A stretch of 64,000 nt of DNA from Dipteris shenzhenensis. Its lineage: Eukaryota. A program made the translations under genes and the position numbers. The stretch is from NCBI GenBank assembly GCA_047967505.1, contig CM106538.1; one strand, given 5' to 3'. The notes under the pieces are model-generated. The model searched no databases. It was not told where the DNA came from and worked only from the letters and a program-made list of their open reading frames with translations. Position 1 is the stretch's first letter. Every line of letters begins with the position of its first letter. Below, piece by piece: positions 11,370 to 50,174 of this stretch.

Positions 11370-14300
11370 AAAGATAAGCAAAGAGCAAATGGAGAAATTC
11401 AATAAGTTTTGTATCCTCAATAGGAAGGAGATGTAGAAGTCGATTGAGAGATATGAAGCGGCCAAAGCAAAAAGAATAGTTACAAGGAAGAGATTCAGAA
11501 TAATTTACAGGTGATTGCAACCATATCCACGGGATCTCGCCCTTCTCCCCACTCACATGTCACTTGATTGGCTACAACTGGCTCTATGTAAAGCTGAACA
11601 CGATGGAGAGACAATAAACGAGTGCGAGTGAGAGTTATCATCTGGATGTATGATGCATGTAAGTTTCTTACCTATTGACGTAATTAAGTAATTATTTGTG
11701 GCAATATACACTATAAAATAGATGCATCTTCATTGTTTTATTTATGCTCTTTTGCAATACAAAAAGTACAGTGTATTATGGTTGTATGGACAACATTTTC
11801 ACGGGAACGCATCGATTCAAAGAGAGTCACATATGATTGGGAGTCATGGTTAACTTCGCACAAGATAGTCGAGCAAGTGCTTTGGATACTAATCTTCTCT
11901 CCTCGCAGTTGGATTATTATGGGACCATACGCAAAATCTATGAAATTGATTTGAAACGATTTAGTATTTTCATTCTTTATGTAAAATGGTTTAGAACTAT
12001 TTACAATGGTCCCCATGCGACAGTGAGAAAAGATAGCAGTGGTTTCTTTGCAATAGACTCCACCAAACTTTGGACCGATGAAAGTCATACTTTTGTTCTT
12101 CTTGAGCATTGTGAGCAGGTGCATAATAATGATTTAATTAATTGAAGCTTTCGTTTTTAAAGATCCATTGATACATGTACTTAAGCATAATTTCATATAT
12201 ATAATTGATGGGATTTGGCACCCATCTTCAATATAGGTGGTTTTTCATCCGGATCGTTCTGATCCGAGATGGTGGTACGTGATCAAAGTTTTACCACGAA
12301 GTAAGAAAATTTTTGAAGATAGAGATGTGGATATGGAGATGCCATTACCAATGTCAGATCCAATTCATCCCGATGGATCTAGCGAAGAAGATGAAGATCA
12401 CAATATGAGCCAAGAGGAAGATGCACATAATGACATTGTAGGGAGGAAGATGGAAATCATGATATTGAGGAAGAAGATGACAATCATCAAGAATCACGAC
12501 ACTTTATTGAAGAAGATTAGGTCTTAGGTGAACATATGATGCTAGAGTACGATGATGATATAGGAGATCAACTCGGTATAGAGTTAGAGATAGACTTGTT
12601 TGGTGCATTAGACTTGGCTCAGCCGTTCATATAAATGCTCTTCATTGAATTTTTTCATCTCAAACTTGGACATGAATATATGAGCTTCAAAATTAATGTA
12701 AATGCTCTTGTACTTTTATTCTCTCAAAGGATCAAACATGTATCAAAAGGAAAAAAAAATTGTCCCTAGGAAAAACTATCTTTAAAGGTCAGTATGGGAA
12801 AAAACACTCTCTGTAAAACTTCGCTATAGGAAACTGTCTCAGTGTCGCTATATAACGACCATTCACAAGTCTAGTAAGTGTTGCTATATAGCGACTCTCT
12901 TTAAAGGTCGCTATATAGCGACTTTTGTCTAAAGTTGCTATATAGCGACACTAAACTAATCCCGCTTTGATTACTGACGATTAGCGCCCCGCGCATGCTA
13001 AACATCGATGCTTAAGCATTGGAATCGGGCCCTTGTGTAGTAGTGTTCACTTCAACATGCATTCCATTTAACAGTCTCCTTTTCTCTCTGAAATTTATAG
13101 TTGATTTAATATAGAAGTAGATTTCAATCATGAATTTCACAATAAACATGGCACTAGAGTGATGCAATACTCTTTAGAGCATGGAAAACAAGCATCCCAC
13201 TTGCTTGTATGTTGATTGACACTTGGTAAAGGAGGATATTGGCAAAGGAAGAGCTAAAGAGAGACCCTTAGAGGTGGATCTTGCAAAGTGCGAGGTGGAG
13301 CTAATGTGTTTTCTAGGCATCTTTTCTCATAGAAACCTCTTCTTTTTGTAGACTTGTGTGGATGGGAAGAACTCAAATTTGAGATAAGTCTCTTACTTCC
13401 TTGAACGTAACTATATGATGCTTTTAACTTATATAATGTTGATGTACTTAATAAACTTTCCATTCATGTTGCATGTAGCCTAACCTAGGTTGTAGCTCTA
13501 GAGAGGAGGGATCTCTAGGAAAGATGGATTTGGACAGAGTAGGCTCGGTGCATGCACTACTAACACACCCTCTATATGATGTGTGTTCAAGGGTCATTAA
13601 AAAAACCCCTAAACTGAAAACCACCCCACTTTACTTATTAACTCGTGGACACCTCCTTTTTAGAGGGCAAGGGATATGGAGAGGATAAAGGTTCTAGAGT
13701 CAGTGAAGTTAGAGGCAAGGATGAGATAGGTTCAGCCTCTAAGAGTAGTGCAGATTGAGGAGATCAATTAGGGATCTAGATTGGAGCTATTGATGTCTAT
13801 TGTATAGAGTATGAATATTTTGTATACTCTATTTGATTCTTCTTGTACATGTCCTCTTTGACTTAAACATTCATGCCCTCTCGAGGGAGCTTTTGTACTC
13901 ATAGGGAATTCTTGTACTCATGCCTTCAAGGATAATATGTTCATGTCACTTCAAGAGCTATTGCTATATAGATCTCATCTCTTTTATGTTCACTAAAAGT
14001 GGGTAATAATGGGAGTACAAGACCCCATTCCACCCCACCAAAATATTTTTATATTCCATAGAGATAGTGCTTAATGGGTATACCAATACTAATTTACTAT
14101 ACATTTTGCATCAATACGTGATGAATTCCTTGACTCAAATTTTTTGCATCTTTGGCATTGGTGCTACCAATAGTTCCTTTCCAATGAATATGATGACAAA
14201 AAATTTCAAACTTTTACACTTCAAAATTCTTTATTTCTTCACAAATTCCATTCGTACTACTGCGAAACATCACATGATAGCTTGTGTGCTAGTCATAGAG

Positions 14301-14922: not shown

Positions 14923-16289
14923 AGGCCTATATGGAAAAAAAAAACCTCTCTAGAAATTGTCGCTATAAAATATTATATCAGTGTCGCTATATAGCGAATA
15001 TAGCGACTTTTAGCAAGCGTCGCTATATAGCGACGCTTTACGGAACCCGCTTTTCATACCGACGATTAACACTAAGCGGGCACTAAACATTGGTACGTAA
15101 ACATCGCAATAGGATCCGTGTGTCATTAGGAAAAAAGGGAGCTCATTTTGGGGCCTTTTACGGTTTGGAAAAATAAGCTCTCAACCAATCAATAGAGGGC
15201 CAACGTAACGTTAAATTCACGAAAATAAGAGAAAATAGAAAAAAGAAACAATACTTTATGTAGGTACAAGCGTGCTACATTAATGTGCAGATTGGCTTTT
15301 TTTCTCACAAGATCTTTGGACAAGAAGATAGAATCTAGTCTGACATTTTATCTGACAAGGGCCTTCCTGCTTCCACCTTCCTTTGAACTTTGAAATGTTG
15401 TGCCGCCTTTCCTTCGAAAGGTCTACCATTCTACACCACTGCCTCATTGTGCAGCAACCTCTTCTTTTCCAAAACTGCTCCCTTGATCCTGTTTGGCGTA
15501 GAGTAAGATGTTTCTTGTCAACTGTCTGTCTGCCCACTTTCTCTTTCTTGAAACTTCAATTTGTTATCTTGTTTACATTACTTTGCTATTGTTACAGATT
15601 CAAAAGGTCTCCATGGTGAATAAAAACCATGGCCATTCTTGTGGAAGATGCTCTGTGCACAACAAGACAAAGCACCCATAGACGCGCATAGACGCATTTC
15701 ATGAACTAAATAAAAAACTTACGGGCGCGTCTATTTGCACATCTATTTTCGCGTCTAGAGACCCGCGTCTAATTGCACGTCTATATATCAGACACACACG
15801 CGTATAGACACGTAGTTAGATGCATAAATAGATGCGCTTATAAACGCGTTTATAGATGCACATATAGATGCAAGTCGAACAGACAGACGCGAATATAAAC
15901 GCGTTTTTAAACGCACTGATAGACGCGCTTTTTTTTTTTTTTTTTTAATTTACAGAATACTGTGTATGTTGTGTATGCTATATAGTTACAAGAATCACAT
16001 ATCCACATTGTGTAATTCAATTCTTACAGCCAACCGCATTTTAATTACAATTCCAAATAAAACATTACAACTCCAAAACGCAATAAAATTGAAAGCTCAA
16101 AAAGTGCTTGTATATACATATAGCACGAAGCTAAGCCACGTCATGTGGCTTCAAGTACAAAAAATAAGGAAGCTAAGCCACGTCATGTGGCTTCAAGTAC
16201 AAAAAATAAGAGGAGTCTATATACAAGAGGCACCAAGCCAAGCCAGTGGCTTTAAGTACAAAAAAGAGTAGCTAGCACTACTTCTACGA

Positions 16290-17698
16290 CTAATCCTCGC
16301 TGCCTTCCACGCTCCCTTCAGCGCTCCCTTCTGCGCCTCCTTCCTCGTCTTCCTCGTCGTCTTGTGCATGGGCCTATAAACAAGGGACAACATATATCAA
16401 TGTATGAAAAATCAAATCTTTACTTATAATTTTGGCATTATTTAATTACTTTCAAATACCTGGGGGGCCGCTCCAGTAGCTCGGGTATACTACTCCTCAG
16501 TAATCAACCCATTATCATAGAAGTGCCTCCATGTATCTCCTCTACGATGGTGGTAGTGGTAGGCTGTCTCCACTGGAGTAGGGTATCTGCCCACGATCTC
16601 AAGCTGCATGACCACGACACACTTTGCAGAGGGATTAGTACAAAGAAACAACCAACCTCCTAATAAACTACATAAGCAATATAATTTGAGATTGATACTT
16701 ATAAATTGGGCCTCCCATGATTCAACACCCCCTGCTCCAAAATGCGTGCTTCCATATTCCTCCATCTGGATCCTCCGTGCCTCCACATGCTGCAGACTGG
16801 GGTCCTCCCTCGCTGACTTCATTGCCTTCTTCCACTCACGCTTGTGAGCAGTGTGGGGCGGGCCCCTTGGTGCTTGACCTGCCTCAAGCTTGGCAAGCTC
16901 CGCTAGTGCATGCCTCTTAAGCGAAAATCTTTTATTGCTAAGTATCGTAACAATCTTTGACTTCCCCCATTTATCTGTGAACTGGTGATTGGGGGGGTTA
17001 GAATACGTAGAGCGAACAGTAGCGAGGGTCTCATCAGCCAACCTCTTTGGGTGGTCTTTGTAGTGGATAAAGCAATCTCTATAATTGTTAGCAATTACAG
17101 AGCGCATGAAGGCCATGATGTCCTTCCCCCGCGCATCCATCAAGATGCCTCCTGTCTGAGTGATGTCATAATAAATCGTACCATCACCCAGAGGCACGTC
17201 TAAATCATCTGAATCATCATCCTCCTCACCGCCACATGGCCCAAAGCACTGTGCCATGCATCCCCCACCGCTCTCCCTGCTACTACGCCTGCTACCCTGT
17301 CATGTCGAGCTCGTACGCTGGCCACTCGTAGCTGGGGACTGCACGGGACTACGCTGACCACTCATAGCTGGAGAACCAAGTCTCGACGACACAGGAGTAC
17401 GTTGTCGGCTCGCCGAGACAGAAGGACCTCCTGACGGCATGGGGGAAGGGGCATAAGACGATACGAGGGAAGGGGCATTAGAAGGGGCATAAGACGGCTA
17501 TGCTGACTCCGTTGAGGTGATCTCAGGCGGTGTGGGGTGGCTTGGAGTCTGTAGTGCCGACTCCTAGGGAGTGTTTAGAGTACCCGTCATATACCTGAAT
17601 AACCCCACAGGACTAAGAGGGTGCCCTAAAAGGTTATATAAGTCCTTCCAAATAGATTCCCGGGGATCAGGTGAGCTAGAAGTGCTTCCTGGCCACAT
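16290..17698 (-). pseudogene. En/Spm accessory ORF (TnpA/ORF2-like, function unassigned), copy 1
   Basis: MWPGS..PDPRESIWKDLYNLLG start, ORF 16490-17257 and short GT-AG introns. Conserved in all three copies. Confidence 0.65.
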
Positions 17699-18580
17699 GT
17701 TGAACTAGAAAAAAGGAAAACAATCTATTACTGATGAGTTGAGAAGAAAGGAGAAGAAAAGAGAGGCTTACTGTCAGAGCACGTCTCTAGATGCCGCGCC
17801 TGATTTACGCGTCTAACAGAGCGTCTAACTACTCGTCTAACAGAGCATCTAACAGAGCGTCAACAGAGCATCTAACAGAGCGTCTAACAGACGCGTCTGT
17901 CTGTGTCTGCAACAAGCCAGACGCGCGGTTAGACGTGCCTGTAGATGCGCTTTTAGACGCACCCTGAGACGCGCCTATAGACGCGCTCCGACAGATAAGA
18001 TTTCTAAAAAGTAGAAAAGGACATTGCGCCCGACACAAAAATGTGACACTAATACCTAGATCATGCGCTTCTTGGATACAAGAAAGTACAAAACTGGAGA
18101 GAGCAAACTTCCAAACAAGATCAACTGCAAAAAGGCTTACTTGGATAGAGGTATGGAAGGTTCTTCTTTCTTTTTCAAAGTTGCTTCTTCTCCTTGTTCG
18201 TCCTCCTCTCCTTTAAGCTTAGAAGTAAGTGTGGGTGCCTTTCTCTTGAGTGTAAGCTTGGAAGTAAATATGGGAGGCTCCCTCTTAAGCTTCGAAACTA
18301 TGGATCTGCTAATAAAGAAGGAAGCAAGCCGCACGAAGTTTAAGTAATGTGAAGAAAAGCAAAGCGAGCGGCGTGCCGAAAAGTAGGTTTAAAAGCAGCG
18401 TCTATAGTCGCATCTAATAGCGCGTCTATAGGCGCGTCTAAATACACAAAGTAGACACGCGTTTAGACATGCCGTTAGACGCGATGTTAGACGCGACTAT
18501 AGACGCGACGATAGATGCAACACAGAGTTTAAATTAAACATTTGAGGAAGAGCAAATTTGGTGGGTTGTTTGTTTGTAGG

Positions 18581-21500
18581 ATGTCTCCATCTTCAATAAG
18601 TAGCTCCAGTGAGGATGAATCCCTCCGTATCCACCATCGCGAAATGTGGTTGGAGCAAAAAATCAAATGTCTGTGTGATCGATGTCGAGGAAACATGTAT
18701 CGTGCATGCAGGATTACACTCAATCATATCTCAAAGTATGGAGAATGGGATGTGATCATAAACAGGGTAAGGGTTTGTAAGTTAAGGTTGATTGAGATAC
18801 CTATGGGTGTTCATATGTTTGAGTTATGATCCTGTTTCAATTTGATACAGGATGCAGTGCCACACCCGCATATGTTACCCTATGCCCGTCGTGAGGAGGC
18901 CAAGCATCGGCGATATGAGGTGGGATCTTTAGGAGGGACCGTTACAGATGCATGGAGTGATGGTGATAGTAGCCCTCCGCCATTACCTCATGAAGCCGTG
19001 GAGGAGGAGGTGTTTGATGATATGGTGTGGGATTTATATGTCCATCAAGGAAGGGATAATAGCATGGAGCAGGATGACCTTTTTACCGCAGCATTGACTC
19101 CACTATTTGAGGGGTGCACATTCTCTATTCTACGTGCCTCCCTTGAGTTACTAAAGTTGCAAACCATCTATGGATGGAGCAATGCAAGTTTGAATGCATT
19201 ACTCAAGTAAGCTTTAAAGTCAATTTTGCAAACATGGTGAATTATGCTAGTGGGTCAATTACTCGAATGCTTTTCCTCATTTATGGTCTTCACGTGCAGG
19301 CTATTGTGTAAAATGCTTCCAAGGGAGAATAAACTACCGACCTCAAGAGATATGGCAAGGCAACATGTGACCTCTCTTGGAGGATTAGATTACAAGCGCA
19401 TCCATGCATGTGTCAACGATTGTGTTTTGTTTCGTGGACTACATAAGGATGCAAGAGAGTATCCTACTTGTGGAGAGGCAAGATATAGAGCAGATGGATG
19501 TGCCTCGTAAGGTATTGGGACATTTTCCCATAATCCCTCGCATCCAACATATGTTCAAGTGCAAATCTATTGCAGAGCTCATGTCATGGCATTCCTCCCA
19601 TTGATCAACCGATGGCAAGTGGAGAACTCCTGCGGACTCTCCTGCGTGGAAGCATATTGAAGACACATGGCCAAGCTTCAAGGAAGAACCTAGGAGCTTG
19701 AGACTTGGATTGGGTATGGACGGTGTGAACCCATTTGGTCTCAAAAGCACGTCTTACAGTGTATGGCCAGTGGTATTGGTGAATTACAATCTTCTGCCCT
19801 CTATGGCTATTAAGAAAGGACATGTCATGCTGTCCCTTCTAATTCCAGGGAAACATAAAGTCAAAAACCCTGATGTTTATTTGGAGCCTTTGATTGATGA
19901 GCTAGAGATACTTTGGAGAGGTATCGAGGTGCATGATGTGAGCAGGCCTCCCTTGTCATGAGACTTCAACTGCAAAGCAGTCTTGATGTGGATGATGCAT
20001 GACTTCCTAGGCTATGGCGAGTGTTCAGGTAAGCATTGCATTTTTTAATTATGAATAGGCAAAGGATGTGGCACCCTAAACCCACCTTCCACTCTTAATT
20101 GCATCTATTGTTCAGGTCTCACTACATTGGGTTACCATGCATGTCCTATTTGTGGTCCTTCGCTAGTTGCCTCACGGGCAGATGCATTGAATAAGGTCAT
20201 CTATGAGAATCACCATCGATTTCTCCCACCTGATCATCCTAGATATGTTGCCCCTTGGAATGAAGTCCTCCCACAATCACTCACCGCGGGAGATTGGATG
20301 AGAATTTGGGACGGTTCCACGACTCCACCACCACTTGGCATGAGCCGGTAAGGGTTTGTAACTATTGGCTGGAAGTAAAGATTGGCTATATTGGCTGAAA
20401 GTAAAGATTGCATGCTAACACTTTATTTTGTTTAGATACTCCATCTTTTATCGTCTACCATATTGGTCCCACCTCAAGATCAATCACCTGCTTGATCCCA
20501 TGCATATCTTCAAGAATGTGGCATCTACCATTTGGGAGCATTTGAATGGGACACGAGATTCGGCAGGCATAAGGGAGGATCTACATACCACAGGGAGGAT
20601 GCATGAAGCTTGGCCTCAAGAGAGACCAAATGGGTGTGTTTTTTTACCTCGTGCACCGTGGATGTTATCAAAGCTAGAGATGGCGATGGTGAAGCGCGCT
20701 ATTACTACAATTCGTACTCCCACTGGATGCATGAGGTGTTTGAAGGGAGCCTTTACAAAGAGCAAGAAAAGAGGTGTAGAGCAATTATATGGCTTGAAAT
20801 CTCATGATTGGCACAAGATGCTCCAAGTAAGTATTTTATATGCATAATATCTTTTTCCTTTCAAATTTGTGTGTGAATAGCTATAAGCAACTAATCAACC
20901 ACCTCCTCGCGGGTTCAGTTCATACTACCTACTAGCATTTCACGTAGTGCATCGAAGGACGTGAAAGATTGTATTTACAAGATGGGCGAGCTTGTGAGGT
21001 ATGTGAGCTCAAAGGAAATAGATCCCACCACGCTTGAGAATTCTCGAGTTATGTCAGTGGAGGCGGTTTGTTTAGTGGAGGAGACATTTCCACGTTCTAT
21101 TCTCACAAGCCAACTACATCTCATAGTGCATTTGGTGGATGAGATTGCTATATGCGGTACTATACATGCACGATGGTTGTTCTTCTTGGAGCGCTTCATG
21201 AAAACCTTGAAGGTCTTCGTGAGACAAAATGCAAGACCCGAAGGTAGCATGGCCGAGGGTTGGTTGGTACAAGAGTCACTTGTATATATTTCTGAGTTTC
21301 TTGTTGATGTGGATAGCTCTCTCCCACGACTATGGAGAGATGATGAAGACCTAAGGATGACCTCCATTGTGCCTCAAGGAAAAGGACACAACAAAGTAAT
21401 AGACACGGAGTTGCATAATAGTATCAACCTCTTTTGCGTGCTTAATAGTGATGTGATGAAAAGATGGGTGACAAGATACGAGGATGCAAAGGCAAGAAGA

Positions 21501-22546
21501 CAAGAAGAAAGGGCCCTCTTTCATACACACCACGGATCTCTGTGCCATACCCTCAACATCTAAGAGCACTTCCAAAGGATATTCATGTGTATTGGCTACT
21601 TAATGAAATGGAGAAAGCAGAGAAAGATGAGGGGATGCATATCACAATGGAAGAATGGGAGTATGCTAGGGGATGCATGAGCAAGGTCGGTATATAGAAT
21701 GTTATGCATAAGTTAGGAGCTTTTTATAATTTAGATTGCTTATTTAATTGATTTTTTCTTGGTGTAGTGCACTATGTTCAATGCTATATGGTGTGAGGGC
21801 AAGCATTTTCAAACACAATGGATTGATGATAAGAGAAACACACAAGATTGCGGCGTCATTGCTAGCTTTGAGGGAGCCAATGGAGCCATGGATGATTATT
21901 GTGGCATAATCCAAGATATTATTATGCTTGACTTTCGACGCTTCTTTGTGTATGTTTTGGATGTAAAGTGGTTTAAGGACATGGTGGAAAGAGGCCCTAA
22001 TGCAACAATCAAACGCCATGCAAGTGGCTTTGTAACTATTGACTCCACAAAGTTTTGGCAAAGTAGGAAGGACACACTAGTACTACTGCAACAATGTGAA
22101 CAGGTACTGTGCACACATATAAAAATACTCGCTTTTAAATATTTGATGCAAGAAAAGTAACATGATTGTATTTGTGTTTGAATTAGGTTGTCTATCAACC
22201 AATGGTGGATAATAATAAATGGTGGCATGTCATACCTATTATGCCACGTTCCAGAGTGATGTATAGTACATTTACTAATATGGAGCGTATGGAGGATGAT
22301 CATGGCCATGGACGTGATGATGACCATGATACAAGAGAGGAGGATGATCATGAGATAGGAGATATAGATATTGAGGCCATTACCCATGAGGACAAGCCTA
22401 CCATTCGAGATGCTGATTTCAATGAGCACATGAGTGGCACAAGTAGTAGTGGGTTGAATGTATTTGTAGATCTAAACACTTGTTTGGATTTTGAAGTAGA
22501 TAGTTTGGCAAGGGTTGATCTCATTGAGGATGAGATTGAACCGTAG
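18581..22546 (+). pseudogene. tnp2: En/Spm Tnp2/TnpD transposase, multi-exon, disrupted
   Basis: KCLCDRC..NHISKYG; IHACVNDCVLF; RLGLGMDGVNPFG..SVWPVVLVNYNL; LDPMHIFKNV; GLKSHDWH; HLIVHLVDEIAICG..ERFMKTLK..RPEGSMAEG; YCGIIQDI..VKWF. Frameshift at about 19495 and stops at about 19602 and 19959. Confidence 0.93.
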
Positions 22547-24482
22547 CCCCATAATTGATATTGGCAAAACTATTTTACATATTGTCTCATTCTCCTCATC
22601 TCACTTAATTCTTGTATATGTGGGCTCACAAAAAATTATGTGCTTTGGTAATCATGGGCAATGTTTGGAAAGCAATGATGTACACCAAAATCTCACTTTC
22701 TGTATTCTCTGGTTTGCGTCTATTTACACATCTAAATGCGCGTTTGATTCTCAGTGTAAACGTGCAAATAAACGTGCAAATACATGCGCAAATAGATGCG
22801 CTAATAAACGGGATGTTAGATGGGCCCGTATTTTCTCAGGTTAGACGAGCACGTAGACGCGGTAATTTACACGCAAATAGACGAGCTTTTAGACGCGCAT
22901 TTAGACGCATCCGTAATTTCTCTACTAAAGCAATGCCTATAGACGCGCCCGCTATTTTGCGCATCTACCATGCACGTCTATAGATGCTTTGTGTTGTTGT
23001 GGTGGATGATAATGCTATGAAGGCAGAATTATACCACACATCCTTACCTCGTCGACCTGCTTCTTCTATTTCTTCGGTAGAGAATTCCAGTACAGTCAAA
23101 ACGGAAGGAACTTGGGAAAGGTTTAGTGTTTTGAGAGGAGCATGGGTGCTCATGCAACCTAGCAAAAGAAAAAGACCCCAGACAAAAAACATTTTCTTGG
23201 CATCATGGAAGGGAAGAGTACGAGATTTTAAAATCACCAGAGGGAAGATATCGATGAAAGAAGTTTTGATTCAACATGTGTACATGCATAAAGAACTTGT
23301 CTTACAAGACTATCCAAATGATCTTCCGCAACACAGGCCTAATTGTATATTTTTCTATTGTGGTTTTTTTCTTTACGAGGTGTATGGATTTTTAAGATGA
23401 AGCTTTCTTTCTTTGCTTATTGACATTCTTGTGTTATTTTATTTCAGATTTATACCCTTCATCGTATGAGACATGGCAAAACATCGATTGTATTCTGGGA
23501 TTTATAGATGTTCTGCATGGATCGATAGGAGAACAACAATACCAAGGTCGATGTGCAACAGAGCTAGCTCAATCAGGTATACTTTTTACTGATCATTTTT
23601 ATCAGTTGCTGGACAATGCTAACACACATGGTGTGTTAAGGAAACAAGACCTTCGAGCATGGAATTCAATGGATTAGCCTCATCCACATTCTAGTGTTAC
23701 AGAGACATATAGGGCCAAGCTTTTCAAAGAAGTACAAAAAGCTCTGAGGCCCAATATTGCCACAAGGATAATAAAAATTTCTTTATGCATGCCTCTCACA
23801 GTTTTTGTGGACTTGTTTAATACCTTTCTAGTGAAGGTTTCAAAAACAATGTTCATAGTTAAAGCAACAAGTTCGGCATGCATGCCACAATTTCTGGATA
23901 AAGGTTGGGATAAGAAGACATGTAGTTCAGTGTTTTGTGAGGTTGTCCAACCTTCTATGCAATTGAAGTACATGGTTGCTCATAAAATTTTATTTTTTCT
24001 TTTTATTATAAGCGCAGTCGAATGCTAGGCACAAAACTAGTCCAAATGGATCAAGATGAAGATTCTTTTGGTGCACAAAATAAACTTCTTGATATTGATG
24101 TTGTTGAGAATGGTGATGTGCTAGTCAATATCTCATTAAGAGAATGTTGCTCCCTAGCTCAATTGTGCAATGACATTCTGTTTGAGACAGAAGGTTCTAT
24201 TTCAAACGACTTTTTATTTATCTACAACAATAAAAAGGTACACCATCTGATTTATCCTAGTCTCATTAAGCACTGCTATTAGTTTACTTTACCCTATTGA
24301 TTCATATTGCTTTTTTGCAGGTGCTCAAAAGAAGAGAGAGCTCAATAAAATGCAAAGGCATTGAAAATTTGAAAATTGAGATAACACAGACTCCATAAAC
24401 AAAGGTTTTGTATTCAATCAAGTAAAATTTTGTACAGAAGTGTTTAGTTGTACATGTAGAACATATTCCTGACATCCATTTT

Positions 24483-26633
24483 CTATTTATGTACGGCTTG
24501 ATCTAGAGGCTACTCTACATGGTCCAAGCTCTCCCTATCATCATTTTTCGGAGAATCTATTTTATGCTGCTCCATCCTGTCCTGTACAGTATGTTGGTGC
24601 TGCTCCATTGTCTCCTCTACTGCCCCAGGAGCATCTGTTTGCTGCTGCTCCACCATCTTCTCCTCAACAACATCAGTAGCAGGTCCTTGCTCCTATGGCT
24701 TCTCCTCATCAGCACTAGGTCCTTGTTCCTATGGCACCACATTAGCTTCATCTGTGGCATCAAGGTGTATGAGACCTTCTTGTACTTTAGAGCTCTCACG
24801 CAACTCGACAGTAGCTGGTACAATAAGTTTGGGGGAGGCATAGCTCAAAAACTTCCAAATTATATGAGCTCGGAAATTATATACATAGTTTGAGCTGAAG
24901 CTATCTTCTTTCATCTGCAATGGCATATGATGATTTAGAACACTTTGTATCACTATCAATTATCTTCAAGCTAAATGATAATAATTTTTTCTTACAAGGT
25001 CTAGCTGTTGTTTCTCAAAATAGCTTGAAAGTAGATATTTGGCACTGATCAGCACTCTCCATCCACAGCTACTTGAATCATCTTGTTGTGGTGTCTAAAC
25101 AGTTGGAAAGATATGTTAGAAACTGTTAACATCTGAACAAAATAAAATTATTCAATAAGTTCAAAGGCATAGCATGAAATAGACATCAGTAGAGGGACTG
25201 ACTTTTTACCTCTAGATTTATTGGCTCTATTGAATCCAAAAGAGAGACATTAGGAGGACAGTGATCCAATGCATCTAGAAGCCTTCTAATACAATTGCAA
25301 TACATATAATTTAGTTAGTATGATATCAAAATAATCAAGTTTTAAGTTCAAAAAGCACACACATTACTTACAATTTTAGCTCTCTATGTGTGTTTTTAAG
25401 AGAGTTGAATATAAAGCATTGCTTCTGCTAGATGTCAATAGAAACAAAACTCCAGTGGTCACTGCATAAGGAAAAAAGCATTAGGAAATCAAAGGCTACA
25501 AGAGTTCTCAATCGTAAAGAAGAATCTTAAAAGAAGCAGTCACCCACATACCTGTTATGTTATGGAAGTAGCAAAACATCGATAACTTCAAAATTGCAGT
25601 GTCTGAACCAGTTGGAAATACCGATGGGAGTTTCCCTTGCATCTCTTAACTTAGAAGAAATGGTAGGATCAATAATATGGACTGTATGCTGTACAGAGGG
25701 GTGAAGCCAGCTTCTCATCATGCTGCATAGGACCAAAAAATAATTAGGGTAGGGTATAAAGGAGGTATAAGGAGGATTGTTTTGCAAAAAATGTAAAATA
25801 ATAGACACTTACTAGAGCATTGCAAGAATGATAGTATCTGAGCAATACTCATTCTTATGAGCCAATGCTACCAAGCATGGTTTTGTCAAGTCAAAATCAT
25901 TCACTGAAAATTCATCCTCAATATGGACAACTATATTAGGGCCCAGCTCCTGCAACCTTCTATGTATCTGCAGCTCCCTCTTTCCAGTCTCCACATCTAT
26001 AACAGATTTTGTTTCTTTTATTTGCTGCTTCAGTGACTCCTCATAAGCAGCCTTCCCTCTGGTGTTCTTTGAGTGGGTTACTTCAACAACCTTAACCTCA
26101 TCTACCTTCAACTTCCTTGTAGGTGGAATTAATAATATGTCTCTCATCTTTATGTCCTACCATTCCACAGGATGAACAAGCTTGTCATACCTCCATCTCA
26201 CTCTGGACAAAGTGTTGAATTCTTTGGTCATCAAAGTCACCCTGTGAGCATGGGCTGCTACCAGCATTGCATCTTCAAAATATTTTTCGAAGTAATCCTC
26301 TGCCATTTCCTGTAAGGAAAGAATGGCAGTCTTGTTCCATCTGAGCCCAAGGTGCCAACAATCACATATTTCTTTCACCAGTCTTTAAAAAGGTGCCTTG
26401 GGGATTGCAAAGCCTATAGCTTTCTGTTGCTTCCTGATCTCCCTTAGCACACCTGCACCATGATTCAATCTCTTGGCCTTTTGCTTGAGTAGGCTCATTG
26501 GCTTACCCTTCCTGCCATGTGCAGCTCTTCCCTTTGGAGGCACACTAAATTTCTTGGTACCTGCCCTAGCTGTTGTTGCTACAAGCCCTGGCCCTTTGCC
26601 AGCTTTCCTTGCAGTTGACTTGGTTCTTGCCAT
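24483..26633 (-). pseudogene. Divergent histone H3 fused to a Ulp1/SENP-like (C48) protease domain (cargo)
   Basis: MARTKSTARK..LREIRKQQK..IPKAPF*RLVKEI..LRWNKTAILSLQEMAEDY..FEDA..AHAHRVTLM, then the same frame continues past TAG 26157. Five GT-AG introns (25812-25723, 25551-25462, 25371-25286, 25209-25095, 24995-24915) keep the frame and give SDTII, LLP*HNSDHWSFVSID, FNSL and TPQQDDSSSCG (Cys at 25065-67). Confidence 0.8.
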
Positions 26634-26740
26634 CACTCTGACAAACTGCATACAAAGCAATGGAAAGAGATTACAGCCATGGAGAACATGGTATGACACA
26701 AAAAGGCAATCACAGGGGTGGATGAAGCAACATTGAAAAT

Positions 26741-28156
26741 TTTGCAATAAAACGCGATATGAGGAGTTTGAAATTCCTAGTAGGTCCAAATCGCGTTTTC
26801 CTGCAAATACCTGAAGTGACATGCTGGTGCATTCCTACAGTGATTTCTCTGTCTTTACAACTCAATACAATATGAATGGATTTTATGCAAGAAAAGTAGA
26901 GCCATGGAGAACTATGGAAGTCACAAAACCAGAATGATAGGGGTGGATGAAGCAACATTTCAATATTTGCAACAAAATGCGATTTCGGCTGTTTGAAATT
27001 CCTAAGGCCTTCTCCTCGCGTTTTCCTGCAAATTCATGAGGCAGCATGCTGGAATATGCCTTCAGTCATTTGAAGGTGTTTGCATGTCCATGCAGGATGG
27101 ATTGAGTGTATGGAAGGCAAGAAGTGTGCACAGACTGAAGGAAGAACCCATAAGTACAGTTTTACCCTCACATGCAATTATCACACTTGAAGATCTGCAT
27201 TCCTACAATGATTTCTCTGTCTTTCCAACTAAATAAAATATGGATTGAGTCTATGCATTTCCATGCGGGATGGATTGTTTCTATGGTAGGCAAGAAGATC
27301 GTAAAGACTGAGGGAAGAACCCATTAATACTGACCTGAAATCTATCTGTGGGTATGCTGTGCTGCTGATGAGTACCCTGTGCTAGGGATGAACCTGTGCT
27401 ACTGGTCAGGATGCTGATGTTGCAGAGTATGGAGGTAGGGAGGCAAGAGAGCTGAGACTGGAGGGCAAGAGGGCTGAGATAGGATACCACAAATAAGTGC
27501 AAAATACAAATAAGGCAGCTACTAAATCCCACATGTATGGAATGTAGTCGTTTTTCACACGTGTAGATGGGACCCAGATCTCTTGGAGTTTGAAACTTGG
27601 CACATGTGAACAGTACACTTTATGCCTTGGAACTTGTGCCATTCATGATTTCATAATCAATTCAACAATCACTCTTCCCTCCCCTGCCTCCCAATCTTTC
27701 ATCCTTGCCAGGACCCTCGCATCTTCCTTTTCCTTCTCTCTCTGATCCTTTCCTACCCAGCACACTCCATCCAGACTACAACCTACCTGAAGACTACTAC
27801 CACTACCAGATCTCCAGGTTACCTAGAGTGCAGAGTTAAAGCTAGTGAAAGAGCAGGAGATTCACCAGTGCAACTCCAACAACATGGAAAAGGAAAGAAA
27901 AGGTCAGAATTCTAGATTGTTTTCAATGTTTTTTGACATATATTTCTTCCATCCATTGAATTTTTGATGTTCAAATGTCTTCACTCAGCTCCACCCTTCT
28001 TGTTACATATTCAATTGATACTGTCCAAGAATGTGGTAAATCACCCAGGAATTTGATTGGAGATGGATATGAATAGAACCTAGAAATTTGCAACAAAATG
28101 CGAGGAGAGTGCTTTATACATTTCTAGGTAGCCCATATCGCATTTTGCTGCAAATT
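26741..28156. repeat. Three copies of an inverted-repeat motif TTTGCAnnAAAAyGCGA-(31-34 nt)-TCGCrTTTTnnTGCAAA
   Basis: Copies at 26741-26807, 26965-27033 and 28085-28156. Confidence 0.8.
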
Positions 28157-28391
28157 CCTGTTGTTGACACATTCCTCATGAAAAGCTTCACTCAGCTCTA
28201 GCCTTTCTCTTGCATATCAACTCATACTGTCTAGGAATCAATGAGATGAACCTAGTGTTTGATTTGACATGCATATCAACAGAACTAGAGCAGCAACTAT
28301 GCAGTGCCCATGCTTCCAGGTGTCTTGATTGGTGGAAAGGATTATGTTTTCCTCCATGATATAGAGTGTATGTTTAATTTGAGGGAGGACT

Positions 28392-29090
28392 ATGCCATTT
28401 CCCTTATTGCCCAGGCTTGCCCAGGCTTCAAGGCTTGACAAGGAGGTTGGCATAGAGGATGACCATTCACTATTGGCTTTGGAAACAATTTTTGATCCTG
28501 CAGAGGCCCTTACTTTTTGTTTCAAAGAGGCTGAAAAGTTCCAAGAGCCAGATGAAGCTACCTTCCAGCTCACACAGGAAGCTATGAATCTCTCAGCACT
28601 ATACACAGAAAAGCTTAAAGAAGAGGCTAGACTGGAGGGGAGAGGAATAAATCTTTGGAAAGATGAACTGCTTGTTGCTGATGAAAATGAGAAGGTACTT
28701 CAAATCAAATACTTTGTCTTCTACTTAAATGTTTTGTAGGTTGTGTATTGTCTCACTCCAATCTTTTGATATGTGGCAGCTACAAATTGAGGATGACACA
28801 TTCCTCCAGAGATCAAGTGGAAGCAGGCCGGTTGGGTTTTGCAAACTGTCAAGCCTAGCTCATTATATTCATGATCTAGGCAGTGCTAAGATCTTGATTT
28901 ACCATAGGCAGTTGAGCAACAATGGAGAACCCATTGTTTACTTCTTAAAATGTTTGTCCAAGGTTTTAGGTGGACATGATCTTTCATGGCAAAAGGAAAA
29001 GATCATTTTGATAGAGAGGTTGTCTGCCATAGATATATTTGGAGATTATGTGAATAAGCAGGCCTCTAGGGCTGCTTACTTTTTGTCTTA
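28392..29090 (+). pseudogene. Unknown protein (cargo ORF X), apparently 3'-truncated
   Basis: ORF 28392-28695 splices via GTACTT..GGCAG into the frame of ORF 28729. It runs head-on into the truncated transposase at about 29090. Confidence 0.4.
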
Positions 29091-29122
29091 CAAATCAAGT
29101 ACAAAACAAAAAATGATCATAC

Positions 29123-30283
29123 CTGGAACCGAGCCTAACCACCATATGTGTTTCTCTGACTGCACACTAAAATACTTCGAACTCACTTCAGTCAATGATG
29201 TATCAATTGCTCCATTCATCAATGTAATAGTAACTCTTTCCATTTTCTTTTCCTTTACAACCTCACACTCATCCAGTTTGATAACAAATTTCAAAATTCC
29301 TTTGCACTCCTCAAATGTTATTCCATAAAACTTGACCATTCTTCTTTGAAGTTGTTGTAGATCTACAAATATATTGTTCCAAGGATTATACATAGTGGGT
29401 CCTTTACCACCATGAAATATTTCTTCAATATGGATATATTGCCCAATAAATTCATCTATACTTTCATTCAAATGACCTCTTATCCTCCACACGATTGCTG
29501 GATTTGGCAGTAAAACTTGTTTAATCCTTTGATCTTTCAAAGTTGAGGATATCACATGGAAAATCAAACTATATCCCTTCCTGCTAACTCCACTAACATC
29601 AAGAGCCTCTTGGATTGTAGTGCCATCAACTTGATTATTGGATACAAAGTCCTGATTTGCGGTAAGGGACGAAATAGATATAGTCATTTGAGAACCTTTT
29701 TGAGTATACAAAATGATAAATTTCAATCTAACCTTGCTTCTTGAATTCGTCGCTTGCATCCACCAGTCCCAGCCTTCAAATTTGTAATGTTTTTAATCTT
29801 CCTACTATGTAGTCTGTCTCCAAGCACGGTTCTCTTCTTTCTTGCTCTTGTCAACTCTTTTTTACTCTTTGAATGCTCCTCAATTTCATTCTACAACTGC
29901 TGCTCCAATTTTGCATGAATGGCTATCTCCTGCATCTTGTCCCCCTTTTCTTGTAGATACATCATTTTATACGTTTCCGCAAATGCAGACTAAGCTGAAA
30001 TATAACCAAGAAGTCCATTTTGTCCATCGCCGACAAACCTCAGTAGTGTGGTGGGATTGACAAATGGAGGTGTAGAGTTTTTTACTTGACATTTTGGATA
30101 TATGCTTCCATCGCACCATAAGTCAATATGTTGAAGCCCTTCTCTTCTCATATTTTCCCGCTATTGAGCATTCAGCACCGTATCCTTTCGTCTTTTTTGT
30201 GCTGGAGCATATTGTTCGTCTAAGTCGATGTGAAGATGGTGTAATCGCTTCTTCTGAGATAGTGACTCACCAGTATCGGCCAT
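29123..30283 (-). pseudogene. N-terminal half of a putative DDE transposase (RAG1/Transib/P-like or Spy-like; superfamily unresolved)
   Basis: MADTGES start, a coiled-coil-like stretch, basic RKIKNITNLKAGTGGCKRRIQEAR, then LKFVIKLDECEV (candidate first catalytic Asp 29271-73), MERVTITLMN and FSVQSEKHIWWLG. Three TAG stops, a frameshift at about 29720 and a splice donor at 29122. Reads inward from the right TIR. Confidence 0.55.
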
Positions 30284-32000
30284 TTTTTGTGCTTCTGAGG
30301 TTGCAAAGTTTGCTTGTCAATCTCATAGTCATTTTGTAACATGAATCGTGGAAGTGTGGCAGTATCCATGTGAATATTTTGAAAACTTGCAATCACCAAG
30401 TTCAATGATGGATTCTTTATGAAAGGCCTGCACACGTCGGCAAAAGAGATGTGGAATCTTTGGTGAACAAAAAAAAATCTAAGGAGATATTTAATGCAAA
30501 ATTGTGTTAGTTAGACAAAAGATTATCTTATTCCTTTCTGAATTGATAGTTCTATAGTCCTTACTGACAGTTCTGAGCCACATTTTTGTATTTTACTATT
30601 TTGGAGGTCTTTTAGGAGAGAAATAAATCAAAAAATAGTGAATTTCTTATAGGGCCCCAAAATGAGCTCCCTGTTTCCCTAATGAGTAGTGAAAGATGAG
30701 CGAAGAGCAAATGGAGAAATTCAATAAGTTTTGTATCCTCAATAGGAAGGAGATGTAGAAGTGGATTGAGAGATATGAAGCAGTCAAAGCAAAAAGAATA
30801 GTTACAAGGAAGAGATTCAGAATCATTTACAGGTGATCGCAACCATATCCACGGGATCTCGCCCTTCTCCCCACTCACATGTCACTTGATTGGCTACAAC
30901 TGGCTCTATGTAAAGCTGAACACAATGGAGAGACAATAAACGAGCGCGAGTGAGAGTTATCATCTGGATGTATGATGCATGTAAGTTTCTTACCTATTGA
31001 CGTAATTAAGTAATTATTTGTGGCAATATACACTATAAAATAGACGCATCTTCATTGTTTTAATGATGCTCTTTTGCAGTACAAAAAGTACACTGCATTA
31101 TGGTTGTATGGACAACATTTTTCCGTGGAACGCATCGATTCAAAGAGAGTCACATATGATTGGGAGTCATGGCTAACTTCACACAAGATAGTCGAGCAAG
31201 TGCTTTGGATACTAATCTTCTCTCCTCGCAGTTGGATTATTATGGGACCATACGTGAAATCTATGAAATTGATTTCAAACGATTTAGTTTTTTCATTCTT
31301 GATGTAAAATGGTTTAGAACTATTTACACAAGTCCCCATGCGACAGTGAGAAAAGATAGTGGCGGTTTCTTTGTAATAGACTCCACCAAACTTTGGACCG
31401 ATGAAAGTCATACTTTTGTTCTTCTTGAGCATTGTGAGCAGGTGCATAATAATGATTTAATTAATTGAAGCTTTCGTTTTTAAAGATCCATTGATACATG
31501 TACTTAAGCATAATTTCATATACATAATTGATGGCATTTGGCACCCATCTTCAATATAGGTGGTTTTTCATCCGGATCGTTCTGATCCCAGATGGTGGTA
31601 CGTGATCCAAGTTTCACCACGAAGTAAGCAAATTTTTGAAGATAGAGATGTGGATATGGAGATGCCATTACCAATGTCGGATCCAATTGACCCCGATGGT
31701 GTTGAGATATCAAGCTCTACCCCCGATATATCTCCTGGATGACTATCATTTATGTCACCGCCTATGTTAGTTGTACTCGTGGTGTAGTTAGACTACCACG
31801 TATGTTTTTGGTTTGGGTTCACATATGAACCACATATTCTAGGTTTTGACATATAGGGTATTTCCCTCTTCTATTGTATTATTGTTGTTGTGTGCAAAAG
31901 TGAAGAAAGGCTTCACCCTCCAACCTTGTGTCCTCTCTCTTTTGTGTGTTGTGAAGAAAGCTGAACTTGAGTCTCCTATCTCTCTCCCTTATTCTTTACA

Positions 32001-32013
32001 TGGTATCAGAGCC
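32001..32013 (+). promoter_or_regulatory. Primer binding site, tRNA-iMet type
   Basis: TGGTATCAGAGCC directly after the 5' LTR. Confidence 0.93.
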
Positions 32014-32577
32014 TTGTTCGTGGTAAGGAGCTCAAGAAAGCAAGCCAAGTTTGTGGTGTCCTGGTAAGAGGACCAGTGTTGCTTTCCTATTTCGAGTTTG
32101 GGAGCAAATCTCTGCAGGTAGCACAGCCAGAAGTGCAGGAGTGCACTGCTTCAGATTGAGAGGCCCTTCGCGGTGTGGCGAGAGCGCAGTATATGCCGCG
32201 GGCGAATGCGAAGCCCTCGGTGACTTTATTTTTTTGATTTGAGGCCGTTTCGAGGCCCGTTTTGAAGGCGGAAGTTCTTCGCAGGCACTCAGAAAAAGGC
32301 CCTGTTTTTGCTGTGCGACCACTGCGCGGCTAGTCGGTGGAAAGGTGCCACAGAAATTGCATCGTATGCCTGTGTGCAGAGATATTGGGAGTTGCAGATT
32401 CATGCCTGTTTCCTGTTGATGCAAAATCGTCACTAGGAAGTGACTGTGTGGTGAAATACCACTTTCGTCAGTGTTGCAGATCTGCCCCTGTGAGGCTTTT
32501 TGCAGAAGTTTTGCTATTTGCCCTTCTGAGGCATTTGCTGTGTTTACAGGTTGCTGTTGCAATTTGTGATTTGTAAA

Positions 32578-35500
32578 ATGTCTGAGAATCTGTCTACCAT
32601 TGTCAGTGAGAAGCTTGACAAGAACAACTTCCAAGCATGGAAGTTCAGGATGACAAACTTCCTCATGGGAAAGGGAGTTTGGGAGTACATCAGTGGTGAA
32701 ACTGCAGAACCAGTTTTGGGTACTGCTCCCACTCCTGCTGAATTGAAGGCCTTTAAAGAATGGCATGAAAAAGCCAGAAAATGCTTGTATTGGCTGTCTG
32801 TTAGCATTTCAGATTCTATGATTGTGCACATACAGGATGTAGAGACACCTAAGGAGGCATGGGATACATTGGTGAAGCTATATAGCACAAATACCAAAGC
32901 ACGAAAGATGCAGCTAAAGCAGGAGTTGCACAATGTGCAAAGGAAAAATATGAATATAAATGAGTATTCCTTGAAGGTGAAAGGCCTTGCAGATTCTCTT
33001 GCCTCCATTGGAGCACCTGTTGATGATGAGGACTTAGTGTCCGTGACCTTGAATGGTCTTGGGAAAGATTATGCACAGTTTCGGACATCCATTGGAGTCC
33101 GTGAAACATTTCCTGATTTTCAGGAACTTATTGCTCTCTTGCTGAGTGAAGAGCAAAGGAATGGTGGTTCAGCCACCTCAACTTCTCAAGAGACTGCTTT
33201 CTACTCGAATACAGGTAGAGGCAGGGGTAGAGGAAGAGGCCGTTTTGGTGGCCGTGCAGGAAATCAGAACCAATAGCAACAACAGGAAAACCAGTCCTAT
33301 GGAGGAGGACGTGGTAGTTCTAGAGGCAGGGGGAGCCAAAGAGGCCGTGGTTCATGGCAAAGGAACCAGCAAGTAAATAGCAGCACAGAATGCTATTATT
33401 GTGTGGAAAGCCTGGACACAAGGAGAATACATGCTATAAAAAGCAGAATGACATCAAAAGTGGGAAGTTGCAGCAAAGCAACTATGCATCATCAAGTGGG
33501 CATGGTGACGACAGAAATGAGCACCTTTTTGTGATGCAGCATATGGTTAACTCCATGTCAGGAGATGCTGCAGCTTGCAATGATGTTTGGTATGTTGATT
33601 CAGGTGCCTCTAATCACATGACCAGTCATGGTGAGTGGTTTCATGATGTTAGAAATTTGGATAAGCCAAGTTATGTTGAAACAGGTGATGATACTGCGCA
33701 CCCAATTACGCAAGTTGGTAAAGTGCCATTGGCTATGCAGGATGGCAAAACAAAGTACTTGGCAGATGTACTTCATGTTCCAAAAATCACTAAGAACTTG
33801 GTTTCAGTTGGCCAGATGGTTGAGCAAGGTCTGCAGGTTAGATTTAATCCTGATGGATGCTTTGTTGAGGACTTGAAAAATAAGTCCGCTTGGTTGCGAA
33901 AGGCAACAAAAATGGCAGAATGTTCACCTTGGATGTTGATATGCCTGAGGTGAAAGCTGCTATGTTTGCGCATGGGAGAGGTGTCATTGCAGATATTGAG
34001 ATATGGCACAAGCGCATTGGGCATGTGAATATACAAAGGCTGAAATATATGCAAACGAAAAACATTGTTGCAGGTTTGCCTAAATTCAGAGTTGAGGGAA
34101 TGCAAAAGGTATGTGAAGCATGCCAAATGGGTAAGCAGGACAGACATGCATTTCCCAAAAATGCTAAGGTAAGCAGAAGACCTTTGGAAGTGATCCATTC
34201 AGATGTTTGGACAACCAAAGCTGCTTCTATTGGTGGATGCCATTATTATGTGACGTTTATTGATGACTACACAAGGAAGGTGTGGATTTATTTTATGAAG
34301 CACAAAAGTGAAGTGTTCAGCCATTTCAAGGCTTTTAAGGCCATGGTTGAAAAAGAGAAAGGGTTGCATATTAAAGTGCTAAGATCTGATGGAGGGGGAG
34401 AGTACTTTTCAGAAGAATTTTGTGAATATCTGAAAGAACAGGGAATTCAAAGGAAGTACTCATGCAGGTCTACCCCTCAGCAGAATGGGGTTGCAGAAAG
34501 GAAGAACAGGCATATTGCAGAAGTAGGACGGGCGATCCTAAATGAGAAAAACATGCCTGATTATTTTTGGGCTGAAGCAGTAGCAACTGCTGTTTATATT
34601 ATGAACAGAACTCCCACTGCAGCTGTCCATGGCATGATGCCTGAAGAAATGTATACAGGCCAAAAACCAAATATTTCTCACTTGAAGGTATTTGGTTGCA
34701 TAGCGTATGTTCATGTTCCTGATGAGAAGAGAACCAAGCTGGATCCAAAGGCAGAAAAATGCATCTTTATTGGATATGCTCAGCACCAGAAAGGGTATCG
34801 CTGTTATAACCCTTCCACTCGCAAAATGCAAGTGAGCAGAGATGTTGTTTTTGATGAAATGAGCAGCTGGTATGCACCAACTATTATGGTAGGAGATGCA
34901 GATGCAGGAAATGGGAATGCTGCAATAAATGTAGAGCAGCAATCGCAAGCCTTGAGTGGACCCAGAGAGTCCTCTACTAGTGGATCTAATGCATGGACAG
35001 GGAGATTGAGATCTAGTGAATCGTCACATGGCAGTCCTGATAGTGTTGTGCAGGTATCACATAAGGGAAAAGAAAAAGTGGACCATACTCCAGTGTTTGA
35101 TGTGTCTGCTGGTAGCTCTCATGTTGATGGAGAGTCAAGCGGCTCTGAAATGAGCCTTGATGAGGAACTTGGGATTCCGTCTGTTGTTACACTTGGTGCA
35201 AGGAAAAGCAGGCATGATTTAAAGACTCGTGCAACTGATCCAGTTGTACGGAGGTCCACTCGTATTAAGTATCCAGTTGACAGGCTGAGATATGATGGGT
35301 ATACAGCACATCACTATGCTTATATGGTCAAGGTTCTAGAGAAGCCAGAGCCCACATGTTTTGAGGATGCAGCAGGGCATAAAAATTGGGAAGCAGCTAT
35401 GGATGAAGAGATGGCTGCCTTGGATGCAAACCACACTTGGGATTTGATGCCTTTGCCTCATGATAAGAAGGCTATTGGCTGCAAGTGGGTTTACAAAGTA

Positions 35501-49679: not shown

Positions 49680-49720
<41 letters not shown>

Positions 49721-50174
49721 ACAACACAAAGCAACTATAGACGCACTTGGTATATGCGCAAAATAGTGGGCGCGTCTATAGGTGTTGCTGTAGTAGAGGA
49801 ATTACGGGTGCGTTTAAATGGGCGTCTAAAAGCTCGTCTATTTGTCTGTAAATTATCGTGTCTACATGCGCGTTCAACTTGAGAAAATACTAGCCCGTTT
49901 AACATCGTGTTTATTAGCGCGTCTATTTGCGCGCGTATTAGCACGTTTATTTGCGCGTTTACACTGAGAATCAAACGCACATTTAGACGCGTAGATAGAT
50001 GCAAATCAGAGAATACAGAAAGTGAGATTTTGGTATACATCATTGCTTTCCAAACATTGCCCATGATTACCAAAGCACATAATTTTTTGTAAGCCCACAT
50101 ATACAAGAATTAAGTGAGATGGGGAGAATAATGAGATGATATCTAAAATAGTTTTGCCAATATCAATTATGGGG

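Follow-up and report, generated by a model that had tools for sequence, protein, structure and literature searches.

Results

Structure of the inserted element

The window (the whole stretch of 64,000 nucleotides that was analysed) carries an inserted element of 15,561 bp at 15124..30684 on the + strand, with 5'-CA...TG-3' termini and no target site duplication (TSD). Its ends are 32-bp terminal inverted repeats (TIRs) of the form CATTAGG...CCTAATG, the left one at 15124..15155 (+ strand; CATTAGGAAAAAAGGGAGCTCATTTTGGGGCC) and the right one at 30653..30684 (- strand), which are identical at 30 of 32 positions. The window contains the 19-nt core of the TIR exactly two times, once in each orientation, against an expectation of 0.03, and two or more occurrences were found in 0 of 100 shuffled sequences. 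The pair CATTAGG at 5867 and CCTAATG at 6124 was considered as a mini-element and rejected, since no extended inverted repeat accompanies these chance 7-mers.

The element's own sequence amounts to about 8.2 kb, and 7.3 kb of the total 15.6 kb belong to a nested CACTA/EnSpm element that the sequence-only reading did not contain. This nested element, 7,344 bp long at 15658..23001 (+ strand), lies outside the host family; its TIR is CACAACAAGACAAAG, its open reading frames (ORFs) contain the Transposase_21 and DUF4218 domains (Pfam), and the 3-bp TSD GTG is present at 15655-15657 and 23002-23004. All of the CACTA/EnSpm characters were found together, namely Transposase_21 (tnp2), CACTA termini and a 3-bp TSD. 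Contigs of the sequencing runs X4 and X5 connect 15654 with 23002, with 3 letters common to both sides, and therefore other copies of the host exist without the nested CACTA element.

The insertion site

Direct sequence comparison gave the filled site in the window as TCGCAATAGGATCCGTGTGT|CATTAGGAAAAAAGGGAGCTC...GAGCTCCCTGTTTCCCTAATG|AGTAGTGAAAGATGAGCGAA. The empty paralogous site at 11350..11373 (+ strand) is AGGATCCGTGTGT|AGTAGTGAAAG, that is TCGCAATAGGATCCGTGTGT|AGTAGTGAAAGATAAGCAAA, where the junction lies at 11362|11363, and two further paralogs in the window, with ends at 13045 and 37877, are also uninterrupted (TGTGTAGTAGTG). The sequence GTGTGT|AGTAGTG, continuous in these three paralogs, is thus split by the element with 0 bp gained and 0 bp lost, and the TIRs start exactly at the indel boundaries that the paralogs set. 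The last base of the left flank is T and that of the element G, while the element begins with C and the right flank with A, so that the junction has a single possible position and leaves no room for a concealed duplication, even of 1 bp. These results bear out the precise T|A insertion without TSD that had been proposed from an empty site in the window; of the span proposed for it, 15111..30700, the insertion stands and the limits do not, because they include flanking sequence.

The segments flanking the element are paralogs with 93-96% identity, and two of the three uninterrupted paralogs are only 70-83% similar. Paralog similarity ends exactly past ...AGTAGTG, the reverse complement of CACTACT..., which supports the earlier placement of the target 7 bp from a CACTA-like terminus. 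The CACTACT-type element at the target is represented in the window by 3' ends only, with 3/3 matches on the - strand. The absence of a TSD was read from one insertion of the family (n=1), the window having no second copy.

The same comparisons recovered the TSDs of the positive controls, GATGG for a long terminal repeat (LTR) retrotransposon and GTG and TCT for two CACTA copies. The retrotransposon, at 31700..37192 (+ strand; LTRs of about 300 bp, TG...CA), lies in the same duplicated segment as the element, and its 5-bp TSD GATGG was read against its empty paralog at 12372-12376. The 3-bp TSD TCT belongs to the second copy of the CACTA family, at 49717..56481 (- strand).

Contigs of four sequencing runs were compared with positions 11100-31000. 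Among the 15 joints listed (123 more exist) none bridged either junction, and none joined 15123 to 30685; among the 24 loose contig ends listed (2,446 more exist), none lay at the element termini. As no bridging contig was found among the joints listed, it is the assembly that supports the junctions.

Genes of the window copy

The N-terminal half of a transposase pseudogene was located at 29130..30253 (- strand) by tblastn with P0001, P0002, P0159 and other relatives. It contains 3 in-frame stops and one frame change, and of the catalytic motifs it retains the first D (KLDE); the second D, C(2)C, H(4)H and E are missing. The ORF at 29091-29792 shows 41% identity to P0001 and 37% to P0002, and was the sole match when the profile of alignment A2 was searched against the host ORFs with hmmsearch (profile positions 49-222 of 671). 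As the catalytic half is missing from this copy, its tie to the RAG1-like enzyme described below runs through the N-terminal remnant.

The element also carries a histone-H3-like ORF at 26157..26633 (- strand; Pfam PF00125, E 1.9e-14), a pseudogene that opens with MARTKSTARK, continues into the histone fold and has one internal stop at 26385-26387. This ORF is colinear with the fern gene model P0172; an Ulp1-type protease guessed from motifs in the C-terminal part of P0172 was dropped, as it had no Pfam support at E<=0.01. The host copy is a defective, non-autonomous deletion derivative, which the earlier reading had missed.

Abundance of the family and search for further copies

The family is very abundant in public sequencing runs. 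In run X1, the summed contig depth was 39,518-431,060 in host-specific bins versus 0.64-636 in the flank bins at 11100-15083, in data where the best-matching public run contained 0.27 of the sampled window words; the contrast was similar in runs X3 and X4 and lower in X5. A TIR scan gave one locus in public metagenome contigs (L001), a chance match without the CATTAGG tip, and 0 matches in public genome contigs and in viral contigs. The A2-guided locus scan gave 88 pattern matches in viral contigs and 20 in genome contigs, with 0 confirmed in either set.

Full-length relatives of the transposase

Full-length relatives of the transposase are about 900 aa long and show the motifs D, D, C(2)C, H(4)H and E in this order, which in alignments A1 and A2 appear as KLDE, VEWHLAGDLKTLKC, C528-x2-C531, H586-x4-H591 and QGMEKSH, with D508 as the second D. 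With P0002 as the query, phmmer detected 641 proteins at E<=1e-3, of which 49 reached E<=1e-30. The only relatives with a name are from a fern, and the family is one of plants, probably of ferns. The protein clusters bore no informative name, just 'hypothetical protein' on two JGI/IMG members.

No Pfam match was obtained for P0001 and P0002 at E<=1, or for P0153, P0159, P0156, P0163 and P0165 at E<=0.01. The PDB sequence search gave three matches with a single sequence, at E 0.68-1.3 and none of them meaningful, and 0 with the profile. An AlphaFold model of the family transposase (mean pLDDT 75.6) was compared with the PDB by Foldseek, and all matches listed at E<=0.001 (at least 49) were RAG1, amphioxus RAG-like or HzTransib chains; the best was 4wwx_E (E 5.5e-11), and the next fold, that of the P-element transposase, appeared at E 0.06. 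In a weak test, each template being a single sequence, hhalign showed no similarity between A2 and two ORF fragments from the transposase of the nested CACTA element. The suggestion of a poorly characterised TIR group agrees with these data, since the relatives of its transposase have no Pfam family and a predicted fold like that of RAG1/Transib.

Discussion

Placement of the family

Transposition by Transib and RAG produces 5-bp TSDs. The best structural matches of the family transposase are of this group, and the element termini likewise start with CA; the family differs in the 0-bp TSD, and its likeness is at the level of the fold, with no RAG1 Pfam family and no PDB sequence match. It differs from CACTA/EnSpm in that its relatives lack Transposase_21, its termini are CATTAGG and its TSD is 0.

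The CACTA-Mirage-Chapaev-Transib (CMCT) clade comprises EnSpm/CACTA, Mirage, Chapaev, Transib/RAG1, Plavaka, ESTA and Lanisha; its lineages share the motifs C(2)C and H(3-4)H, and their termini are 5'-CA..TG-3' (PMC12730594). The motif order of the full-length relatives, whose second half is missing from the window copy, and the RAG1/Transib-like catalytic fold predicted for the transposase place the family in this clade, and the CATTAGG...CCTAATG termini of the window element are of the same type. The difference lies in the TSD, which is 0 bp at the one insertion and 2-5 bp for the clade, Lanisha included (PMC12730594).

In the literature search, Lanisha was the only named lineage of this kind found in non-seed plants. 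It was reported from the moss Ceratodon purpureus (Maumus, McDaniel & Carey, Repbase Reports 2020; GenBank MT647524; PMC8245031), and is described as EnSpm-like where it is put in the CMCT clade (PMC12730594). Like the present family, it is by its description a cut-and-paste lineage of plants, and it has been proposed as a new superfamily. The literature searched described no TSD-less RAG1-like or CMCT element, and contained nothing linking ferns, RAG1, Transib and transposase.

A parallel for the insertion itself is Spy, a member of the PHIS superfamily related to IS5/PIF-Harbinger, which was described in invertebrates and inserts at AAA|TTT without a TSD (PMC4122938). Both are TIR-bearing DDE elements with a precise, TSD-less insertion at the centre of a palindromic A/T site, seen once (n=1) for the window element. 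In contrast to Spy, the target of the window element is GTGTGT|AGTAGT, the fold of the family enzyme matches RAG1 and not PIF/IS5, and the host is a plant.

Proposed integration without stagger

Based on these data, we interpret the insert as a non-autonomous member of a land-plant cut-and-paste family with a very high copy number, and we regard the chances as evenly balanced that integration with zero stagger is the normal mode of this family. Autonomous relatives would encode the DDE transposase, which is about 900 aa long, has the RAG1/Transib fold and would act in trans. Supplied in this way, the transposase would bind the 32-bp inverted ends, cut the element out at its CA...TG termini and join both of its 3' ends to the target. 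From the single insertion, the two strand transfers appear to have taken place at directly opposite phosphates, in the centre of the palindromic TA, and the 7.3-kb CACTA element would have arrived later in the host copy of about 8.2 kb. Both junctions are clean, with neither nibbling nor filler, as direct joining by a transposase predicts. If zero stagger is the usual mode, the family would form a TSD-less lineage inside a clade that otherwise makes TSDs of 2-5 bp; these TSDs in the CMCT lineages (PMC12730594) lower the prior for a TSD-less member.

The main alternative, which we consider a good deal less probable and still a serious competitor, is that the family normally makes a short TSD and that the window copy is a one-off, in which a blunt excised fragment was ligated by end-joining into an unrelated blunt double-strand break. 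The 2-5-bp TSDs of the CMCT lineages count in its favour, and with n=1 the data from which the earlier reading had inferred blunt-target strand transfer equally fit end-joining of a blunt-ended element. Excision of the RAG1/Transib type leaves hairpins on the flanks and blunt 3'-OH ends on the element, and the RAG1/Transib-like fold predicted for the family enzyme makes blunt excised ends plausible. However, end-joining mostly trims or adds bases, whereas here neither junction shows a flaw and every base of the target is preserved, and captures of this kind would be expected to account for a very small share of insertions. If the family makes ordinary TSDs, there remain a thoroughly documented locus of nested transposons and, in ferns, a RAG1-like transposase family that has no name yet.

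It is quite improbable that the order of events was reversed, with the element older than the segment duplication and the 'empty' paralogs left by its precise removal or made by gene conversion with a copy that lacked it. Flanking paralogs with 93-96% identity could exchange sequence; however, three separate paralogs are uninterrupted, two of them just 70-83% similar, and an insertion into a single copy explains this more simply. Hairpin-forming transposases, moreover, usually leave footprints when they excise. Such an order would alter the history of the site and not its anatomy, since the filled site would still have no TSD.

Helitrons lack TIRs, have the ends 5'-TC...CTRR-3', insert between A and T and carry a Rep/helicase gene. 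That no clean transposition occurred at all, the termini lying elsewhere, the assembly being chimeric or the element belonging to a TSD-less class (Helitron, Crypton or DIRS), is very improbable, for although the region is densely repetitive and no contig bridges a junction among the joints listed, a chimera would not yield 32-bp TIRs beginning at both paralog-defined boundaries, the CATTAGG...CCTAATG ends and the T|A site do not fit a Helitron, which was rejected, and none of the 45 ORFs tested against Pfam has a Rep/helicase, reverse-transcriptase or tyrosine-recombinase domain.

Implications

Returning to direct, zero-stagger joining by the transposase, our tentative overall view, to which we would give somewhat less than even weight, is that a land-plant lineage with the RAG1/Transib fold integrates with zero stagger at the centre of TA and makes no TSD. 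Within the CMCT clade no TSD-less lineage would precede it, and among eukaryotic cut-and-paste elements only Spy would; it would have multiplied to a very high copy number in the form of a deletion derivative with its own histone-H3-like gene. The absence of a duplication would be unusual if it is valid for the whole family, as such elements normally leave a short TSD. Where annotation software depends on a TSD, the family, which appears to rank with the most abundant repeats in the genome of its host, will be overlooked or given wrong boundaries.

The length of the TSD directly reflects how the transposase dimer sets its two active sites on the target; RAG1 and Transib have a fixed stagger of about 5 bp, which is coupled to strong bending of the target. 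If the proposal is true, the family would be a second independent case, beside Spy, of scarless integration and possibly of scarless excision, and joining at opposite phosphates in a natural relative would mean that the stagger geometry is evolvable within the RAG1-like fold.

Results

The host element, a TIR transposon with a CACTA nested inside it, was compared with a paralogous, uninterrupted target at 11350–11373 (junction between 11362 and 11363). The empty site reads AGGATCCGTGTGT followed directly by AGTAGTGAAAG, and in the filled site CATTAGG...CCTAATG stands between the same two sequences, which delimits the host element proper to 15124–30684 (15,561 bp). Differing bases flank each boundary and leave the junction no room to slide; therefore, a hidden duplication of even 1 base is excluded. 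Two more unbroken paralogs terminate at 13045 and 37877, and both read TGTGTAGTAGTG. These data bear out the sequence-only reading of a precise insertion between T and A without a TSD, and show that an insert with intact inverted ends sits there with no base duplicated and none missing. Each end carries a 32-bp inverted repeat (30 of 32 positions matched), and the 19-nt TIR core has exactly two occurrences in the window, inverted relative to each other, against an expectation of 0.03; none of 100 shuffles contained it at least twice.

The same paralog comparison was used to read the TSDs of three other elements in the window, namely an LTR retrotransposon at 31700–37192 (5-bp GATGG), the nested CACTA at 15658–23001 inside the host element (3-bp GTG; TIR CACAACAAGACAAAG, with Transposase_21 and DUF4218 ORFs), and a second copy of the latter's family at 49717–56481 (3-bp TCT). 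The recovery of these TSDs indicates that the method detects them where present, and the 0-bp TSD of the host element is no artefact of the comparison. The LTR retrotransposon is ~5.5 kb long with LTRs of ~300 bp that are 99% identical to each other, and a second, inverted copy lies at about 900–6230 near the window start, ~97.6% identical over the best-matching 2.4 kb (2364–4778). The CACAACAAGACAAAG CACTA family carries arrays of 12-bp subterminal repeats of the AGACGCGC type and has three copies in the window, one of them partial (15658–23001, 49717–56481, and from 56951 onward), the first two being 92–95% identical and in opposite orientations.

Self-comparison of the window revealed duplicated segments at 11363–14909 and 30685–39775 (~96% identity), the latter broken by the LTR retrotransposon at 31700–37192. 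The insertion target is part of a repeated unit, and the likeness among its copies ends precisely at the last base of ...AGTAGTG, which reads CACTACT... on the opposite strand; the unit thus behaves as a CACTA-like 3' terminus, in agreement with the earlier placement of the target within a CACTA terminus. Only 3' ends of this unit occur in the window, with all three matches on the minus strand. Four same-orientation 3' ends of a CACTACTACACA-type element, at 11369, 13045, ~15130 (the interrupted one), and 37877, are clustered in 10322–15130 and 37193–37877; their subterminal motifs, GTCGCTATATAGCGAC, are palindromic, and the window contains no 5' end to match them. Two tandem-repeat blocks were also observed (6890–10320 and 62110–63800), one an array of purine-rich (GA-type) units, each ~160–280 bp long, and the other a satellite-like array of ~181 bp.

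Without the nested CACTA, the host element measures ~8.2 kb, and the window contains only this one copy of it. Among 45 ORFs, Pfam returned Transposase_21 twice, DUF4218 once, and Histone once, with no match for 41; all three CACTA-type matches fall within the nested element. Adjoining the right end, a remnant of the N-terminal half of a transposase (30253–29130, minus strand; three in-frame stops and one frame change) is homologous to unannotated proteins of ~660–900 aa, with 41% identity to P0001 and 37% to P0002, two such relatives. The transposase-family profile matched just this single ORF among all host ORFs, at profile positions 49–222 of 671; the catalytic half has thus been lost and the copy is non-autonomous. 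At position 29129, exactly where transposase homology ends, most family contigs in four public sequencing runs (X1, X3, X4, and X5) are one base shorter, and the window copy therefore carries, where it is truncated, a 1-bp insertion private to it.

A histone-H3-like ORF (26633–26157, minus strand; Pfam Histone) has one internal stop; its tail opens with the canonical ARTK.TARK, the middle is divergent, and the histone fold is of the H3 type. The transposase N-part, the H3-like part, and a further segment follow one another in the same order as in the fern gene model P0172. Because P0172 has the same Histone domain fused to the same transposase N-part, the transposon family may carry the H3-like gene as a standing passenger, and not as a private capture.

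Contigs of the four runs were aligned to 11100–31000 at a likeness of at least 88%. The depth summed over contigs, which is not a copy number, was 39,518–431,060 over host-specific bins in X1 and 0.64–636 over the flank bins (11100–15083); the pattern was similar in X3 and X4 and lower in X5. A difference of two to four orders of magnitude between these bins points to a very abundant host-element family. Both X4 and X5 have, among the contig joints listed, a single contig that runs from 15654 straight to 23002, the two sides sharing 3 letters; therefore, other host copies lack the nested CACTA.

A phmmer search with P0002 against 1.84 billion representatives returned 641 proteins at E ≤ 1e-3, mostly fragments; of these, 255 passed a cutoff of 1e-10 and 49 one of 1e-30. 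The transposase relatives have no PDB match at the sequence level and no significant Pfam match, the latter consistent with the earlier suggestion of a poorly characterised TIR group. Alignments of 30 (A1) and 12 sequences (A2) share the motifs KLDE, VEWHLAGDLKTLKC with D508, C528-x2-C531, H586-x4-H591, and QGMEKSH. An AlphaFold model from the 30-sequence alignment had a mean pLDDT of 75.6, with approximately residues 370–780 mostly above 85. Foldseek against the PDB gave 49 matches at E ≤ 0.001, and all those listed at this threshold are RAG1, amphioxus RAG-like, or Helicoverpa Transib transposase chains (best, 4wwx_E; E 5.5e-11, TM 0.59 on the target); the first match with another fold was the P-element transposase, at E 0.06. 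The ESM Atlas agreed with the RAG1-like placement, as a lead only. Only four of 26 hits were named relatives, all of them hypothetical proteins from the fern Adiantum nelumboides, which suggests a fern or related host.

Discussion

To our knowledge, no structure of any CACTA, Mirage, or Chapaev transposase has been solved; therefore, the RAG1 matches give a fold class, and the modelled family is predicted to belong to the RAG1 fold class and not specifically next to Transib. According to PMC12730594, lineages of the CMCT clade (CACTA-Mirage-Chapaev-Transib) have in common C(2)C and H(3-4)H motifs, 5'-CA..TG-3' termini, and TSDs of 2–5 bp. The host element and its family show three of these four features, the TSD being the exception, and the element is neither a CACTA nor a Transib in the strict sense. 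Spy, which the sequence-only reading had named as the described TSD-less exception, is indeed the one such TIR group to have been described; it inserts between AAA and TTT and is related to IS5/PIF-Harbinger (PMC4122938). The host element works alike in inserting without a TSD but differs from Spy in target and enzyme.

Regarding the mechanism, the host element would be cut out at its CA...TG ends by a RAG1-like transposase of the family provided in trans, and both of its 3' ends would be joined to phosphates that face each other directly in the middle of the palindromic TA. Such zero-stagger integration as a property of the family has, in our estimation, an even chance of being correct, resting on one insertion (n=1); three DNA scans and two protein-guided scans of public contig collections returned no further family copies. 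The main rival, which we consider possible though less probable, holds that ordinary short TSDs are the rule in the family and that host end-joining sealed this copy into a blunt break. RAG1-type excision is expected to yield blunt excised ends; the perfect junctions on both sides argue against such a capture. A reversed history, in which the filled site is ancestral, is improbable, and an artefact or another element class is more improbable still; a small remainder of the probability is assigned to no reading.

The moss lineage Lanisha is an obvious candidate to be this same family. It was reportedly covered in Repbase Reports 2020. It is also covered in PMC8245031 and its preprint. Our literature search found no description of a TSD-less RAG1-like or CMCT element.
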